Part shown: piece after piece, positions 675 to 58,976 of the stretch
How the letters are laid out: each line of letters opens with the position of its first letter
How positions within the stretch are numbered: position 1 is the first letter of the stretch
From: a virus
Lineage: Duplodnaviria; Caudoviricetes
Length of the DNA: 64,000 nt
Virus record (IMG/VR): IMGVR_UViG_3300037418_002332
Reading direction: 5' to 3' (one strand)
Position numbers and translations under genes: made by a program
The notes under the pieces: generated by a model
What the model was told of the DNA's origin: nothing
What the model saw: the letters and a program-made list of their open reading frames with translations, nothing else
The model's database searches: none

Positions 675-962
675 ATGCGGATATGGTATATGGGTATTAC
701 GAGACCTTGCCAAGGTTTAGAAGAGGGTTCGAGCTCCTCTATCCGCTCCAAATTCTATACTGATGGAAAACGACATTTGGTTTGTGTTCCATATTCAGTA
801 GAAAATCTTCACCAAATGGCTGAAGAATTGGATATCAAACGTTGTTGGTTTCATCGAAATCACTACGATATCCCGAAGAAAAGAATTGATGAAATCACCG
901 CAAAATGTGAGTTGGTTTCAAGTAAGATGATTGTTCAAATCATCAAAGGTGAATTGGGATAA
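675..962 (+). CDS. hypothetical protein, DUF4031-like C-terminal part; overlaps tRNA-Gly
   Basis: RHLV...LHQMAEELDIKRCWFH..HYDI resembles DUF4031; the only ATG lies just before the tRNA. Confidence 0.45.
   Translation: MRIWYMGITRPCQGLEEGSSSSIRSKFYTDGKRHLVCVPYSVENLHQMAEELDIKRCWFHRNHYDIPKKRIDEITAKCELVSSKMIVQIIKGELG
677..750 (+). tRNA. tRNA-Gly(GCC)
   Basis: AGACC-TTGCCAA-GGTTT, U73, CCA. Confidence 0.92.
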
Positions 963-1051
963 AATCCCTCCGATCCCGGCAGAGCGGTTCAATTCCGCCT
1001 CGTCCACCAATCTATGGACGAGTTAGTGTAACGGCAGCACTCCGGACTAAA
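956..1051 (+). ncRNA. circularly permuted tRNA-like gene A (Arg CCG-like)
   Basis: 3' half (CT-CCG-AT, CCCGG, T-arm GCGG-TTCAATT-CCGC, CTCGTCC-A-CCA, 968-1009) precedes 5' half (GGACGAG, D-arm GTGT/GCAC, CCGGA, 1016-1051). Confidence 0.75.
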
Positions 1052-1053
1052 TT

Positions 1054-1157
1054 GGAACTGAAAAGTTCCTACGATGTCGCAGTTCCTGTATCGAATCAGG
1101 GTCTCCCACCATAAATCAGATATGGGAGATTGGTGAAAGTATCACGGCGATACTAAA
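1054..1157 (+). ncRNA. circularly permuted tRNA-like gene B (Arg ACG-like)
   Basis: 3' half (CT-ACG-AT, GTCGC, CCTG-TATCGAAT-CAGG, GTCTCCC-A-CCA, 1069-1111) precedes 5' half (GGGAGAT, GTGA/TCAC, GCGAT, 1124-1157). Confidence 0.75.
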
Positions 1158-1160
1158 CTT

Positions 1161-15536: not shown

Positions 15537-16334
15537 ATGCATTGGGTCTTACAAGACAACATATTTTCGGAACAAGGTTGGAATGTTTTGGTGGAAACAC
15601 TTCAACGTTTCAACATTCCGTTTTCCGAACATAAGGTTGTTCCATTCATTGGTGAGTTGTTGCCTGACCCTGAACCAATTGAGGGTCCAGTGATTTGCAT
15701 TGGCTCATATTCGATGAGGCACATTGCGAAGAAAAAGGGTTGGAATCCCGGTGTGTTTGATCTTGAACCACAAAACTTTTTGGTTCAGAAAAAGCATTGG
15801 GGGGAACTGATGTTGAATTACGATTCAATGGTTCTTCCTTTCAAAGACGTTTATCTTGACGAACCACGATTTGTTCGTCCAATTGATGATTCAAAATATT
15901 TCGCCGGCAAAGTTTTCGATCCTGATGAATTCAATCGTTGGCGTGTGTCGATTGTTGATTTGAAACAGGAAACAGGAATAAGTTTGACTCCTGAAACATT
16001 GGTTCAAATCTGTAAGCCTCATAAGATTTACAGCGAAAATCGTTTCTGGATTGTAGACGGAAAAATTGTAACAGCATCAACTTACAAAATTGGACATCGT
16101 GTTGCATATTCACCAGATGTTGATACAAAGTTCTATGATTTCGTTCGTCAATTGTTTGATCCATTCCTTCAACGTGAAGGACGTCCTTGGTTGCCTCACG
16201 AAGCATTTGTCATTGACGTTTGTGACACTCCTGAGGGAATCAAGATTGTTGAAATCAATACTTTGAACAGTTCCGGATTTTATGCTGGTGATGTCCAAAA
16301 ATTGGTTTTTGCTTTAGAAGAAAAATTTGCTTGA
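15537..16334 (+). CDS. ATP-grasp domain protein (R2K/DUF4343-like)
   Basis: FVRPIDDSKYFAG, ENRFWIV, FVIDVC, IVEIN...SGFY. Confidence 0.75.
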   Translation: MHWVLQDNIFSEQGWNVLVETLQRFNIPFSEHKVVPFIGELLPDPEPIEGPVICIGSYSMRHIAKKKGWNPGVFDLEPQNFLVQKKHWGELMLNYDSMVLPFKDVYLDEPRFVRPIDDSKYFAGKVFDPDEFNRWRVSIVDLKQETGISLTPETLVQICKPHKIYSENRFWIVDGKIVTASTYKIGHRVAYSPDVDTKFYDFVRQLFDPFLQREGRPWLPHEAFVIDVCDTPEGIKIVEINTLNSSGFYAGDVQKLVFALEEKFA

Positions 16335-19622: not shown

Positions 19623-20075
19623 ATGAAACATATCATATCAGCCGCCATTGCCTTTGCTGTTAAGCATCACGAAGGCCAATTCGACAAGGCTGGTATGCCT
19701 TACATCCTTCATCCTTTGAAGGTTATGTATTATGTTAAATCCAATGATGAAGAGTTGATGGCAATTGCTGTCCTCCATGATGTCATTGAAGATTGTTTCA
19801 CTCATGATCATGAAGCTGGCTATGCAGCTTTGAAGGCAATCGGAATGACACCACGAGTCATTGCTGGTGTTCGAGCCTTGACCAAGATCAAGGGAACCAA
19901 ATACGAAGATTACATTGACAATTTGATTGCAAATATTGATGCGGTCAAGGTCAAGATGGCTGATTTGCGCCATAACATGGATGTTCGCCGTTTACTCGGC
20001 GTCACCGACAAAGACATTAAACGCATTGAAAAATATGCGAAAACCTATCACAGATTAGAAGGAGTATTGGGATGA
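19623..20075 (+). CDS. HD-domain (p)ppGpp hydrolase-like protein (SpoT/Mesh1 family)
   Basis: HEGQFDKAGMPYILHP, AVLHDVIED, VKMADLRHN. Confidence 0.85.
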   Translation: MKHIISAAIAFAVKHHEGQFDKAGMPYILHPLKVMYYVKSNDEELMAIAVLHDVIEDCFTHDHEAGYAALKAIGMTPRVIAGVRALTKIKGTKYEDYIDNLIANIDAVKVKMADLRHNMDVRRLLGVTDKDIKRIEKYAKTYHRLEGVLG

Positions 20076-33360: not shown

Positions 33361-34374
33361 ATGTTACTGTCGAGAGACGATTTTCGTGAGGGAGTATTCC
33401 GCCGCGACAGATATCGGTGCGTTGTTTGTGGCAACGCTGCTGTTGATGCTCATCATATTTTTGAGCGCAGGCTTTTTCCCGATGGTGGGTATTATCTTGA
33501 TAACGGTGCTTCTGTTTGTGAAGATCATCATCTTGCTTGCGAAAGGACTGATATTTCTGTTGAAGAAATTCGTACTTACGCAGGAATAACCAAACGCATA
33601 ATTCCGCCTCAATTGTATGATGACCAAGTTTATGACAAATGGGGCAATCCCATTTTGTTGAACGGAACACGATTAATCGGTGAACTTTTCTTCGATGAAT
33701 CCGTCCAGAAAATTCTTGCTGGTCATCTTCATGAATTCAGTCATTATGTAAAGTACCCAAGAACGTATCATCTACCTTGGAGCGAAGGCATTCATAATGA
33801 TGATCGAATTATCCCTTCCATGGAAGTTCTTGAGAAATCAGAAGTGGTTGTGACTAAAAAGATGGATGGTGAAAATACCACCATGTACAGTGATCATATC
33901 CACGCGCGAAGCCTTGATTCACTCCATCATCCATCAAGAAATTGGGTGAAGAATTTCCATAATCAGATTGGTTATCTCATACCTGAACACTGGCGTGTCT
34001 GCGTGGAAAATCTTTACGCCAAGCATTCAATAGGCTATGATGACCTTCCTTCATATGCCCTTGGGTTCTCAGTTTGGAATGAACGCAACGTTTGTTTGAA
34101 TTGGGATGAAACACTTGAGTGGTTTGAGCTTCTTGGCATCACTCCAGTTGAAACTCTTTATCGAGGTCCATTTGATGCTGAGAAAATCAAGGCTCTGTGG
34201 AAAGATATGAGTTGGGAAAAGGATGAAGGCTACATTGTCCGAACTGTTTCTGAGTTTCCATTCTCAGACTTTCGTAAAAATGTAGCGAAATTCGTTCGCA
34301 AAGGTCATGTTCAAACAATCAAACATTGGATGCATGGTCAAGCAGTAACTCCAAACAAGCTATTGGATGAATAA
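33361..34374 (+). CDS. HNH domain fused to ATP-dependent RNA ligase
   Basis: CVVC...DAHHI...C..HH; ligase motif I KMDGEN; EGYIVR, KFVR. Confidence 0.8.
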   Translation: MLLSRDDFREGVFRRDRYRCVVCGNAAVDAHHIFERRLFPDGGYYLDNGASVCEDHHLACERTDISVEEIRTYAGITKRIIPPQLYDDQVYDKWGNPILLNGTRLIGELFFDESVQKILAGHLHEFSHYVKYPRTYHLPWSEGIHNDDRIIPSMEVLEKSEVVVTKKMDGENTTMYSDHIHARSLDSLHHPSRNWVKNFHNQIGYLIPEHWRVCVENLYAKHSIGYDDLPSYALGFSVWNERNVCLNWDETLEWFELLGITPVETLYRGPFDAEKIKALWKDMSWEKDEGYIVRTVSEFPFSDFRKNVAKFVRKGHVQTIKHWMHGQAVTPNKLLDE

Positions 34375-36440: not shown

Positions 36441-36698
36441 AAATAATTCACTTTAAAATCAAGGGTTTACAATTTTCATAGAAGAAATAATTTTGTAGAC
36501 CCTTGACAAACATCTAAAAATCAGCAATAAAATAATTCCTCGCGTGCGCGTTAACTTTTGAGGCATGAAATGCCGAAAAATGTTAAGCAACAAGTCCTTA
36601 ACAAGTCCCGTTAACTGATTCTCGCTGACTGCCTATTGATTCCGTTAACTCCCCTGCGTCCCTGAGGTTCGTATAGGGAAGAACATTCAAAATAATGC

Positions 36699-36748: not shown

Positions 36749-37804
36749 ATGATGCGTAAAGCTTTTGAGCTGATGAAAATTATGAACGACGCAGGTCGCG
36801 AAACCCGAATTGCTGGTGGTGCGGTCCGTGATACGGTCATGAGACAAAATCCAAAAGACATCGATCTGGCAACTGTCGCCAAGCCCGAAGAGGTTCGGGA
36901 AATCTTCACTAAACTGGGTCACTCAGTTATTGATACTGGGCTGCAACATGGTACTGTTACCGTGGTGATTGATCACATTCCATATGAAGTGACAACTCTG
37001 CGGGTTGATTCAAACCAGGATGGCCGTCATGCTGATGTGACTTTCACTGATAGTTTTGAGGAAGATGCAAAGCGTCGTGACTTCACGATGAATGCTATGT
37101 ACATGGATTACAATGGAGATATCCATGACTTCCATGAAGGGAAGCGTCATATTAATCAACAGATGATTTATTTTGTTGGTGATCCTGAACAACGTATCAA
37201 GGAAGATTATCTGCGCATCCTGCGTTATTTCAGGTTCATGGCTCGATTTAGATTTGGTCATGACTATAATGCGATGTATGCAATGGGTGATTTGCGTATG
37301 GGTCTGCATAAAATCTCCCATGAACGTATCTACTCAGAAATCATGAAGACTGCGCAAGTTAATGACACGCAAGTGTTCTATCTGATGAATAATTCATGCA
37401 TCAGTGAAGTTGTCTTCAATAAGAATCTGAAAACGGAAGAAACAACCCATACGAAACCCGAAATCACTCTGTTCATGAAGGGTATCGGTTCTAATTGGTT
37501 CCGTGAATTCAAGGCTCCTGCTGATGTGATCAAAACGATTGAATGGCATGAAAAGTTTCAGCCTTCCAATTTCAATTTTGATCTGTTCAAAAACGGTGCA
37601 GAACGTATGCGTGAATGGTGTTTCATCAATAATGTTCCTTGGGGTTCCAAGTTTGCTGAGGCACCGAAGTTTCCGCTGACTGGTCACGATTTTCCTCACC
37701 TGAAAGGCAAGGCAATTGGTGACAAACTGAAAGAACTGCAAAAGGTATGGGCTGAAAATAACTTCGAGCCCACGAAACAAGAACTGCTGAAGGAGAATGG
37801 TTAA
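36749..37804 (+). CDS. cca: tRNA nucleotidyltransferase (CCA-adding / poly(A) polymerase family)
   Basis: GGAVRD...DIDLAT, EVTTLR, RRDFTMNAM, EDYLRILRYFRF. Confidence 0.9.
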   Translation: MMRKAFELMKIMNDAGRETRIAGGAVRDTVMRQNPKDIDLATVAKPEEVREIFTKLGHSVIDTGLQHGTVTVVIDHIPYEVTTLRVDSNQDGRHADVTFTDSFEEDAKRRDFTMNAMYMDYNGDIHDFHEGKRHINQQMIYFVGDPEQRIKEDYLRILRYFRFMARFRFGHDYNAMYAMGDLRMGLHKISHERIYSEIMKTAQVNDTQVFYLMNNSCISEVVFNKNLKTEETTHTKPEITLFMKGIGSNWFREFKAPADVIKTIEWHEKFQPSNFNFDLFKNGAERMREWCFINNVPWGSKFAEAPKFPLTGHDFPHLKGKAIGDKLKELQKVWAENNFEPTKQELLKENG

Positions 37805-58565: not shown

Positions 58566-58571
58566 AAGTTT

Positions 58572-58976
58572 CTATTTGGTGTAAAAGCTAAATAGGATTG
58601 TTGCCGTTGATATTTCAACGTTAAGGTGTGGAACACGCGGGTGCAATTCCCGCCGTCTCCACCATGGCTAAAACGAGACTGGACTGGTCATGTTTACATG
58701 ATTCGGAAAAGCGTACAGATGTTATGTTAGTTAGTCAATAATCTTCGAGAAATCGCCATTATTGAGGTTGACATAGCTTGAAATCGTTTTAGCTTTGATG
58801 GGGACGAATTAGGATCGACTCCGCGCGCATAGGAAGAAAAGTAGGCAATTCGCTGACCGAGCGGTCAAACAAAATAAAGGACAACGATAACTTCGTTCCT
58901 ATGGCAGTTGCTGCGTAAGCAGTAGACTCCAATGAGCTTTTGCCGGTTTTGGCTTGGAAACAGAACAAAACCGGCA
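58572..58976 (+). ncRNA. ssrA: circularly permuted two-piece tmRNA
   Basis: acceptor piece GCGGG-TGCAATT-CCCGC-CGTCTCC-ACCA (ends 58664) precedes GGGGACG (58800), G3.U70; tag ORF 58880-58918 DNDNFVPMAVAA*. Confidence 0.92.

Follow-up and report, generated by a model that had tools for sequence, protein, structure and literature searches.

The present study examined a window of 64,000 nucleotides (nt) of the IMG/VR virus record IMGVR_UViG_3300037418_002332, a 247-kb record that is 97% complete, has 40% G+C, and originates from soil and rhizosphere metagenomes. Two adjacent and co-oriented units, designated A and B, are located at 956-1160 of this window on the plus strand; each comprises ~95-105 nt. 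A first-pass annotation described them as circularly permuted genes resembling those of transfer RNA (tRNA) for arginine. We instead propose, with moderate confidence, that A and B are non-decoding tRNA mimics resembling YrlA Y RNAs and belong to a CCA-bearing subtype cleavable by ribonuclease P (RNase P), and that they probably become two-piece RNAs. As part of this explanation, we regard them as a derived "open" subtype of a widespread phage family of tRNA-elbow mimics with the YrlA architecture. The closing helix of the open subtype is just an anticodon-like stem of 4-5 base pairs (bp), and the subtype has a full-length acceptor, an encoded A-CCA, and an unconstrained linker. We observed a defined structure, its conservation and covariation, a relationship with the phage family, and an absence of affinity with tRNA-Arg.

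The two units share the same order of elements: a 5' hairpin, the segment C-U-NCG-A-U, the 3' strand of the anticodon stem, a 4-nt variable region, the T-arm, the 3' strand of the acceptor, ACCA, a linker, the 5' strand of the acceptor, two nucleotides, the D-arm, the 5' strand of the anticodon stem, and ACUAA(A) (Table 1). Every element that the first-pass annotation had described was found at the position given for it. The gene order is truly circularly permuted, as had been claimed, with the 3' half upstream of the 5' half and the acceptor and anticodon stems formed across the halves. Cross-half pairing is perfect in A and B (acceptor, 7/7; anticodon stem, 4/4 or 5/5). The permuted cloverleaf was the minimum-free-energy and the centroid structure of both units in RNAfold (-32.3 and -32.8 kcal/mol, z ~ -3.1). 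The 5' hairpins may belong to the 5' end of their own unit or may be 3' stabilizers of the preceding RNA, and the hairpin at 1054-1069 could equally be the 3' hairpin of A.

The prediction that standard tRNA finders miss both units was correct: neither ARAGORN nor Rfam called them in their native order, and the Rfam search reported neither unit at gathering thresholds or at E<=10. A strict scan of both strands of the genome for a T-arm, acceptor 3' strand, CCA, short gap, and complementary 5' strand recovered A. A relaxed scan for the permuted architecture recovered A, B, and a handful of weak matches at the rate of shuffled genomes. When a permuted covariance model built from A alone was run over the 20-kb array with all filters off, B was the top non-self match (22.5 bits, E 2.5e-4) and aligned over its full length with every element, including CGAU, ACCA, and ACUAAA. 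The next match in the array (12.7 bits) was the junction of two ordinary tRNAs. Junctions of tandem tRNAs are a known class of false positives for permuted tRNA-like RNAs (PMC4201824), and those in other loci scored up to ~26 bits with our models. A and B are not junctions of this type because their cross-half pairing is perfect and their outer sides lack matching halves: no pairing is possible between the 5' half of A and the 3' half of B, an open reading frame (ORF) for a DUF4031 protein lies upstream, and a separate Phe-like tRNA lies downstream. The weaker matches at loci L055, L056:3824, L095, L105, and L187 and all matches in Agrobacterium phage Atu_ph07 were rejected as artefacts of tandem-tRNA junctions. 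Pattern searches of IMG/VR for near copies of the T-arm, acceptor, and ACCA of A or B yielded unrelated ends of tRNAs or transfer-messenger RNAs (tmRNAs), or nothing.

At least six public metagenome data sets contain the stretch. In other runs, three contigs (X7, X8, and X9) with ~90-93% identity to it retain both units, although X9 covers only A. An assembly artefact was rejected because the arrangement is carried by these data sets and kept by the divergent contigs. The relatives leave both ACCA tetramers, both T-arms, and both anticodon stems unchanged. In A, the acceptor pair 3-70 (1003/1018) changes from A-U to G-C in X7 and X8. In B, the D-stem pair 1133/1145 becomes G-U in X7 (1145 C>U), and hairpin B is rebuilt in X7 and X8 as GAAGC-GAAA-GCUUC by coordinated changes. 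Linker A has a 2-nt deletion in X7 and X8 and one substitution plus a 1-nt insertion in X9; linker B has four consecutive substitutions (1117-1120) in X7 and X8. The linkers of the relatives thus mutate freely, whereas both ACCA tetramers are fixed, which supports the first-pass interpretation in part. Two stems of the first-pass annotation also stood in part. The 7-bp acceptor proposed for A pairs completely here, but its 7-66 pair (999/1022) is not kept; this pair is the sole stem damage in the relatives, with 999 changed to A in all three. This A, at the junction of the T-stem and acceptor, is the conserved residue of the phage family. The anticodon stem of B has five conserved pairs, whereas the sixth that had been included (A1152-U1075) is lost because 1075 changes from U to A in the relatives.

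A distant homologue, L040/L041, is present at the syntenic position on a Logan contig, where the neighboring protein is 59% identical. In comparison with A, L040 has double compensatory changes at three acceptor pairs, one anticodon-stem pair, and two T-stem pairs. We used Infernal alignments because MAFFT alignments of the units were structurally wrong. In the Infernal alignment of A, B, and the L040 unit L040-u1, 94.6% of cells were paired and 7/19 pairs were changed on both sides; no column shuffle matched this covariation (0/500), in a set of three sequences with an alignment fitted to the structure. Sliding the 3' partners by 1-3 columns decreased pairing to 36-51%. Both cross-half helices covaried, in the Infernal alignment and also by hand, as the permuted structure had implied.

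These results also bear on the possibility that A and B are functionless, decaying leftovers of tandem tRNA duplications, in which flanking deletions have left the 3' half of one copy ahead of the 5' half of its neighbor. Where identical tRNAs lie in tandem, their junctions do resemble permuted units (12-26 bits with the models), and the array of this phage is full of aberrant tRNA-like genes. However, compensatory changes keep the cross-half stems in near and distant relatives, the linkers drift but ACCA and the stems do not, and two tandem copies of the arrangement have terminal motifs in common. At least six metagenome data sets also contain the arrangement. We consider such an origin to be highly improbable.

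The D-arm (UUAGUGUAAYGGNAGCAC) and T-arm (GCGG-UUCRAYU-CCGC-A) of A recur in units closed by a "handle" stem (described below) at the phage loci L087, L162, L168, L080, and L159. The model built from A alone (R1) found L168, L087, and L162 at 29-35 bits (E ~1e-6). A rebuilt model (R2), searched against ~1.7 Mb of phage loci, scored L168 at 52 bits, L162 at 44, and L087 at 39, and found further members. Loci L039, L040 (second unit), and L002 have the same internal order with a longer conserved closing stem, AGGAU-N-A / U-N'-AUCCU, which is followed by UUACAGCAA. A pattern for this "handle" matched 36 IMG/VR stretches, ~18 of which are clear members, and the central N/N' of the handle covaries (C-G, G-C, A-U, and U-A). 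The layout of the family is a UUU-AGGAU-N-A / U-N'-AUCCU-GUU handle, UUACAGCAA, often a small hairpin with a 7-nt loop, the T-arm, an acceptor of 0-7 bp, the D-arm UUAGUGUAAYGGNAGCAC, and an A-rich 3' strand. Members include L002:3912-3999, L056:2462-2585, L087:11920-12050, L162:1532-1655, L168 (minus strand), and ~15 more IMG/VR loci. Rfam has no family for the handle-type units, A, or B.

The tRNA elbow, formed by the T-arm and D-arm, is constant across the members. The acceptor ranges from none (L083) through 3 bp with a tetraloop (L080) to 7 bp with ACCA (L039, L050, and L053), and the closing stem ranges from the handle to a plain helix of 4-6 bp (L172, L191, L192, A, and B). Most acceptors in the family are capped by 3-7 nt. 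Among the linkers of at least 9 nt, ~5/9 (A, B, L039, L050, and L053) start exactly with N-CCA, for which the chance is 1/64 each. Since this is far above chance, we concluded that an "RNase P/CCA" subtype exists. A and B share with the handle family the homologous T-arm and D-arm, the order of elements, the A-rich 3' strand, residence in tRNA arrays, and, with a subset, the N-CCA linker. In contrast to the handle family, they have neither the conserved handle nor UUACAGCAA (both were searched for around the two units), and they instead have a short anticodon-like closing stem and NCGAU. The D-loop and T-loop of B are divergent from those of the family. In L040-u1, the stem is handle-like (UAGGUUUG/CAAACCUG). 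The possibility that hairpin A is a relic of the handle (GGGAU/AUCCC vs AGGAU/AUCCU) was not adopted because the sequence of hairpin B is different and covarying. A and B are derived members of this family, most members of which cannot be tRNAs.

The architecture of the family is that of YrlA, a type of Y RNA found in bacteria and mycobacteriophages. The YrlA topology consists of an anticodon-like strand, T stem-loop, closed acceptor, D stem-loop, and second anticodon-like strand (bioRxiv 10.1101/312249). Its signature is a short 5' motif, GNCGAAN0-1G, and this motif is thought to contact Ro60/Rsr mainly via the 5' strand (PMC4201824). The acceptor of M. smegmatis YrlA is 7 bp long; RNase P cleaves this RNA both in vivo and in vitro, and its end is CCA (PMC4201824). 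A and B resemble YrlA in gene order (5' motif, anticodon-like strand, variable region, T-arm, acceptor, D-arm, and anticodon-like strand), in the tRNA-like elbow, and possibly in a short NCGA(A) motif directly 5' of the tRNA-like module. The NCGA segment, UCCGAUC in A and UACGAUG in B, occupies the place of the YrlA motif; in B it is UCCGAAG in X7 and UACGAAG in X8, which match 6/7 defined positions of GNCGAAN0-1G. As in M. smegmatis YrlA, the 7-bp acceptors should permit RNase P cleavage, a CCA 3' end, and two pieces. However, CCA is encoded in A and B and is added after cleavage in YrlA. Also unlike YrlA, A and B have an extra 5' hairpin and occur as two tandem units inside a tRNA array.

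Several observations weigh against the explanation we propose. A and B have no basal Ro-binding helix, and their closing stem is just 4-5 bp. The YrlA model RF02553 (69-bit threshold) gave no match to A or B at E<=10, in searches of 850-1350 and of the whole genome; its best match elsewhere in the genome scored 18 bits. A search of the 247-kb, 97%-complete phage record with PF05731 (Ro60/TROVE) found nothing, so that the Ro60/Rsr gene expected within a few kb of a YrlA gene, on its strand, is lacking, and no TROVE gene was found in five other phage records that carry the family (two of them >=85% complete). The first G of the YrlA motif is U here, and A has NCGAUC in place of NCGAAG. Not all of the family carries the NCGA motif, and most handle-type members have UUACAGCAA instead. 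The covariation of the anticodon stem comes from three alignable open- or hybrid-type sequences and three near-identical variants. Moreover, CUACGAA is the anticodon loop of an Arg(ACG)-type tRNA of the phage itself, and, hence, sequence alone cannot separate a Ro motif from an anticodon mimic. Because there is no Ro60 gene and no match to RF02553, we regard A and B as a variant and not as members of YrlA. The CU-NCG-AU signature that the first-pass annotation had read as an Arg anticodon is present; however, its reading as an anticodon is not favored, and the GNCGAA motif that contacts Ro60 in YrlA fits equally well. Two neighboring closed elements (37-235 and 233-388) contain UUCCGAAGU and AUCCGAGUG (UCCGA(A/G)). 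TCCGA occurs three times in 560 nt of four neighboring tRNA-like elements vs 0.30 expected from its genome-wide density (Poisson P ~0.004).

These tRNA mimics probably mature as follows. Because no promoter or terminator was found flanking A or B, the units are presumably co-transcribed with the surrounding tRNA array. RNase P would then cut between the U(-1) of each linker and G+1, before G1016 and G1124, and exonucleases would trim the linker back to CCA. The two pieces would stay joined through the acceptor and anticodon-like stems as a tRNA-like particle. A two-piece outcome has been shown experimentally for M. smegmatis YrlA (PMC4201824). The phage also encodes a permuted alpha-type (two-piece) tmRNA at 58566-58976 (Rfam RF01849/RF04321), which needs the same RNase P cleavage and trimming. 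Cleavage by RNase P and trimming to CCA is a reasonable prediction because the phage has the two-piece tmRNA, RNA ligases, and a CCA enzyme. Similar to A and B, the two-piece tmRNA of alphaproteobacteria has the order T-arm, acceptor 3' strand, CCA, linker, and acceptor 5' strand, and its mature form, produced by RNase P cleavage and 3' trimming, consists of two pieces that base-pair. In contrast to tmRNA, A and B contain neither a tag reading frame nor pseudoknots, and they have a true D-arm and a length of ~100 nt. Proteins most likely contact the conserved single-stranded NCGA(U/A) segment and the A-rich tail. The partner may be host Ro60/Rsr, an RNA-repair or tRNA-recognizing factor, or another protein that recognizes the elbow or the motif. 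NCGA(U/A) is probably not an anticodon used in translation.

This explanation differs from that of true permuted genes for tRNA-Arg(CCG) and tRNA-Arg(ACG), in which the anticodon-side ends would be trimmed and joined as in algae and Thermofilum, by way of a circular intermediate or the sealing of a nick by an Rnl1-type ligase, followed by RNase P cleavage and 3' trimming. We consider it very unlikely that A and B are such genes. As the first-pass annotation had stated, the rejoined halves read as Arg: ARAGORN accepted in-silico joins as tRNA-Arg(CCG) and tRNA-Arg(ACG). A 7-bp acceptor, G1, A73, and an encoded CCA are present, "CU" precedes NCG and recurs in the tail A-CU-AAA, which would permit equivalent cuts, and the phage encodes RNA ligases and a CCA enzyme. 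However, the proposed identity was not supported when rejoined A and B were compared with 487 tRNAs from the genome and the fetched loci; they were no closer to tRNA-Arg than to other tRNAs. Joined after CU, the halves form an anticodon loop of 7 nt in A and of 8 nt in B. Both units depart from elongator geometry, with 4-bp T-stems in both and, in B, an 8-nt T-loop and a 5-nt D-loop without the G18-G19 guanines. Taken together with the 7-66 pair of A, which is broken in relatives, these features indicate that the rejoined product is not a canonical isoacceptor-like tRNA. The core is also homologous to that of mimics with closed or missing acceptors.

Maturation into a joined tRNA also appears difficult. 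No bulge-helix-bulge or other excision or ligation signal was found; a unit begins with a local hairpin and ends with an unpaired ACUAAA tail, and its two ends do not pair with each other beyond the 4-5-bp stem. The 13-16-nt hairpin and 6-9-nt tail need precise removal before the ends are ligated, and no cut site or enzyme for this removal was evident. Permuted tRNA genes in Cyanidioschyzon, green algae, and Thermofilum pendens also have the 3' half first (PMC3978253, PMC3218864), and, as in A and B, a short linker that joins the acceptor ends is opened by RNase P and a 3' nuclease. Their precursors have a bulge-helix-bulge that is cut by the splicing endonuclease, and a circular intermediate leads to a decoding tRNA. 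In contrast, A and B lack the bulge-helix-bulge motif, the enzyme, and canonical tRNA geometry. Bacteria lack the splicing endonuclease, and the literature searched reports permuted tRNA genes solely from algae and one archaeon and no such pathway in bacteria or phages. Codon usage gives no need for these tRNAs: CGG, the sole codon of a CCG anticodon, is the rarest Arg codon of the phage (1.6 per 1000), and the repertoire of the phage already includes tRNA-Arg(UCG) and a rewired Arg(ACG)-type tRNA. Maturation of A and B into aminoacylatable tRNA-Arg-like molecules, either with ends sealed by the Rnl1-type ligase or as functional two-piece tRNAs, has a slim chance of being correct.

The rewired Arg(ACG)-like gene (~2163-2242) is D-armless. 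A 7-bp acceptor and 7 nt precede its anticodon arm, CUCGU-CUACGAA-ACGAG, and ~20 nt (with UAAUUGGAA) separate this arm from the T-arm, which is followed by U73-CCA. No tRNA finder called this gene, and a canonical Arg(ACG) gene is present at the syntenic site in L039.

We also considered whether A and B are pre-nicked look-alikes of tRNA-Arg that serve as decoys for a host anticodon nuclease directed at tRNA-Arg or as ligands of proteins that repair or sense nicked tRNAs. A processed unit would present the 3' portion of an Arg anticodon loop (U33-NCG-A37) beside an open anticodon stem. The heptamer keeps C32, U33, C35, G36, and A37, and position 34 varies (C in A, A in B, and C in B of X7); B in X8 is CUACGAA, which is identical to the loop of the Arg(ACG)-type tRNA of the phage. 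An engineered circularly permuted tRNA is a nicked-tRNA mimic and a good ligand of RtcR (PMC10159003). The Rnl1-type ligase, two PF09414 ligases, and CCA enzyme are also in line with such a role; the presence of three RNA ligases and a CCA enzyme suggests that hosts of this phage attack tRNAs. On the other hand, the bodies of A and B have no Arg-specific similarity, and A20 is absent. L040-u1, which lies within a closing stem of the handle type, has A at the position of U33 (CAGCGAU), and UCCGA is also present in the two neighboring closed elements, where it is not beside an anticodon-like stem end. The 5' side of the loop is tied into the hairpin and, thus, is not a simple nick, and no tRNA-Arg nuclease is known for the host. 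We regard this role as rather unlikely. Given the three ligases and CCA enzyme, the YrlA-like mimics that we propose might themselves act in a contest over tRNA cleavage and repair.

Table 1. Elements of units A and B and selected genes; positions refer to the window unless the genome (G000:C1) is named.
Feature	Position	Strand	Remark
A, 5' hairpin GGGAU-AAA-AUCCC	956-968	+	Unchanged in X7-X9
A, single-stranded motif U-CCG-AU-C	969-975	+	Anticodon-half-loop-like or GNCGAA-like
A, anticodon stem	CCGG 976-979 with CCGG 1042-1045	+	
A, T-arm GCGG-UUCAAUU-CCGC	984-998	+	Common to handle-type L087 and L168; preceded by the 4-nt variable region
A, acceptor	CUCGUCC 999-1005 with GGACGAG 1016-1022	+	
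A, A73-CCA (ACCA)	1006-1009	+	Invariant in relatives
A, linker AUCUAU (6 nt)	1010-1015	+	Unconstrained; last nt is U(-1) before G+1
A, U8-U9 followed by D-arm AGUG-UAACGGCAG-CACU (9-nt loop)	D-arm 1025-1041	+	
A, unpaired A-rich tail ACUAAAUU	1046-1053 (ACUAAA 1046-1051)	+	Unchanged in X7/X8
B, 5' hairpin GGAAC-UGAAAA-GUUCC	1054-1069	+	
B, single-stranded motif U-ACG-AU	1070-1075	+	UCCGAA in X7, UACGAA in X8
B, anticodon stem	GUCGC 1076-1080 with GCGAU 1147-1151	+	
B, T-arm CCUG-UAUCGAAU-CAGG (8-nt loop)	1085-1100	+	Invariant in X7/X8
B, acceptor	GUCUCCC 1101-1107 with GGGAGAU 1124-1130	+	3' strand invariant in X7/X8
B, A73-CCA (ACCA)	1108-1111	+	Invariant in X7/X8
B, linker UAAAUCAGAUAU (12 nt)	1112-1123	+	Unconstrained; ends in U(-1)
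B, D-arm GUGA-AAGUA-UCAC	1133-1145	+	
B, unpaired tail ACUAAACUU	1152-1160 (ACUAAA 1152-1157)	+	Ends at the 5' end of the Phe-like tRNA; ACUAAUUU in X7/X8
DUF4031 ORF	750-962		Short; follows tRNA-Gly; no obvious start codon
RNA ligase genes	genome (G000:C1) 75037-75492; 116366-116920; 124911-125492		

The tRNA and RNA-repair repertoire of this phage is unusually rich. A plus-strand array of ~27 tRNA genes occupies the first 18 kb of the window, and an amber-suppressor-type tRNA(CUA) is located upstream of the window, at genome (G000:C1) 36522-36598. The genome contains three ATP-dependent RNA ligase genes, two of PF09414 and one of the T4 Rnl1-type PF09511 (Table 1). A PF09414 RNA ligase at 33361 and a CCA enzyme at 36749, both named in the first-pass annotation, were confirmed, the latter with a CCA/poly(A)-polymerase head; RtcB is absent from the phage genome. 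Atu_ph07 is the only annotated phage with a homologue of a neighboring large protein, and, therefore, the host probably belongs to Rhizobiales.

Hairpin A overlaps the TAA stop codon of the upstream DUF4031 ORF, which ends inside the hairpin. DUF4031 genes are frequent in the tRNA arrays of large phages (32 IMG/VR loci, L002-L033, with 60-76% identity). The DUF4031 protein was rejected as a dedicated partner of the units; although its gene adjoins a permuted unit in this phage and in L002/L073, most of the 32 loci show no such adjacency. No partner of the DUF7873 or Ro60 type was found among the ten larger array ORFs. An ATP-grasp protein (R2K clade; 15537-16331) and an HD_4-domain protein (19623-20072) are encoded among the tRNA genes. 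For the downstream gene at 1631-1981, no relatives were found in IMG/VR, and four homologues were found in a large protein collection.

Other elements near the units are also unusual. Directly after B, a tRNA-Phe(GAA)-like gene with canonical order and an encoded ACCA (1161-1238) was missed by ARAGORN and scored 26 bits with the Rfam tRNA model (threshold, 29 bits). In L040 and L039, the permuted unit is likewise followed by an odd Phe-like gene, orthologous to this one. The element at 1244-1319 forms a good cloverleaf with a 6-nt anticodon loop, UUUGGU, and was labeled "tRNA-???" by ARAGORN. An uncalled tRNA-like gene at 1527-1603 has an acceptor, T-arm, and ACCA and an irregular D/anticodon region. 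The closed elements at 37-235 and 233-388 are tRNA-like and long-stemmed, with terminal stems of ~24-25 bp; in the latter, a T-arm and an acceptor-like stem closed by a loop are present together with UUGCAGCAAG, a sequence similar to the UUACAGCAA of the phage family.

The present study described an open, CCA-bearing, tandem variant of YrlA-like phage tRNA mimics, which is new; permuted tRNA-Arg was not demonstrated. The results obtained indicate that a large population of permuted RNAs with the shape of a tRNA lies unannotated in phage tRNA arrays, overlooked by standard tRNA finders and Rfam. A and B represent an extreme form of this population, with a complete 7-bp acceptor, an encoded CCA, no basal handle, and half an anticodon loop. 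A Y-RNA-like nature would extend this class to phages without Ro60 and imply an unknown partner; a role as decoys or two-piece tRNAs would bear on the arms race around defense systems that cleave tRNAs. If they are aminoacylatable tRNA-Arg-like molecules, the bacterial world would have its first natural tRNA genes of a permuted or split type, and the phage would encode a form of tRNA assembly that anticodon-nuclease defenses cannot pre-empt. In each case, two RNAs of ~100 nt, RNase P, and a ligase constitute a compact and testable substrate.

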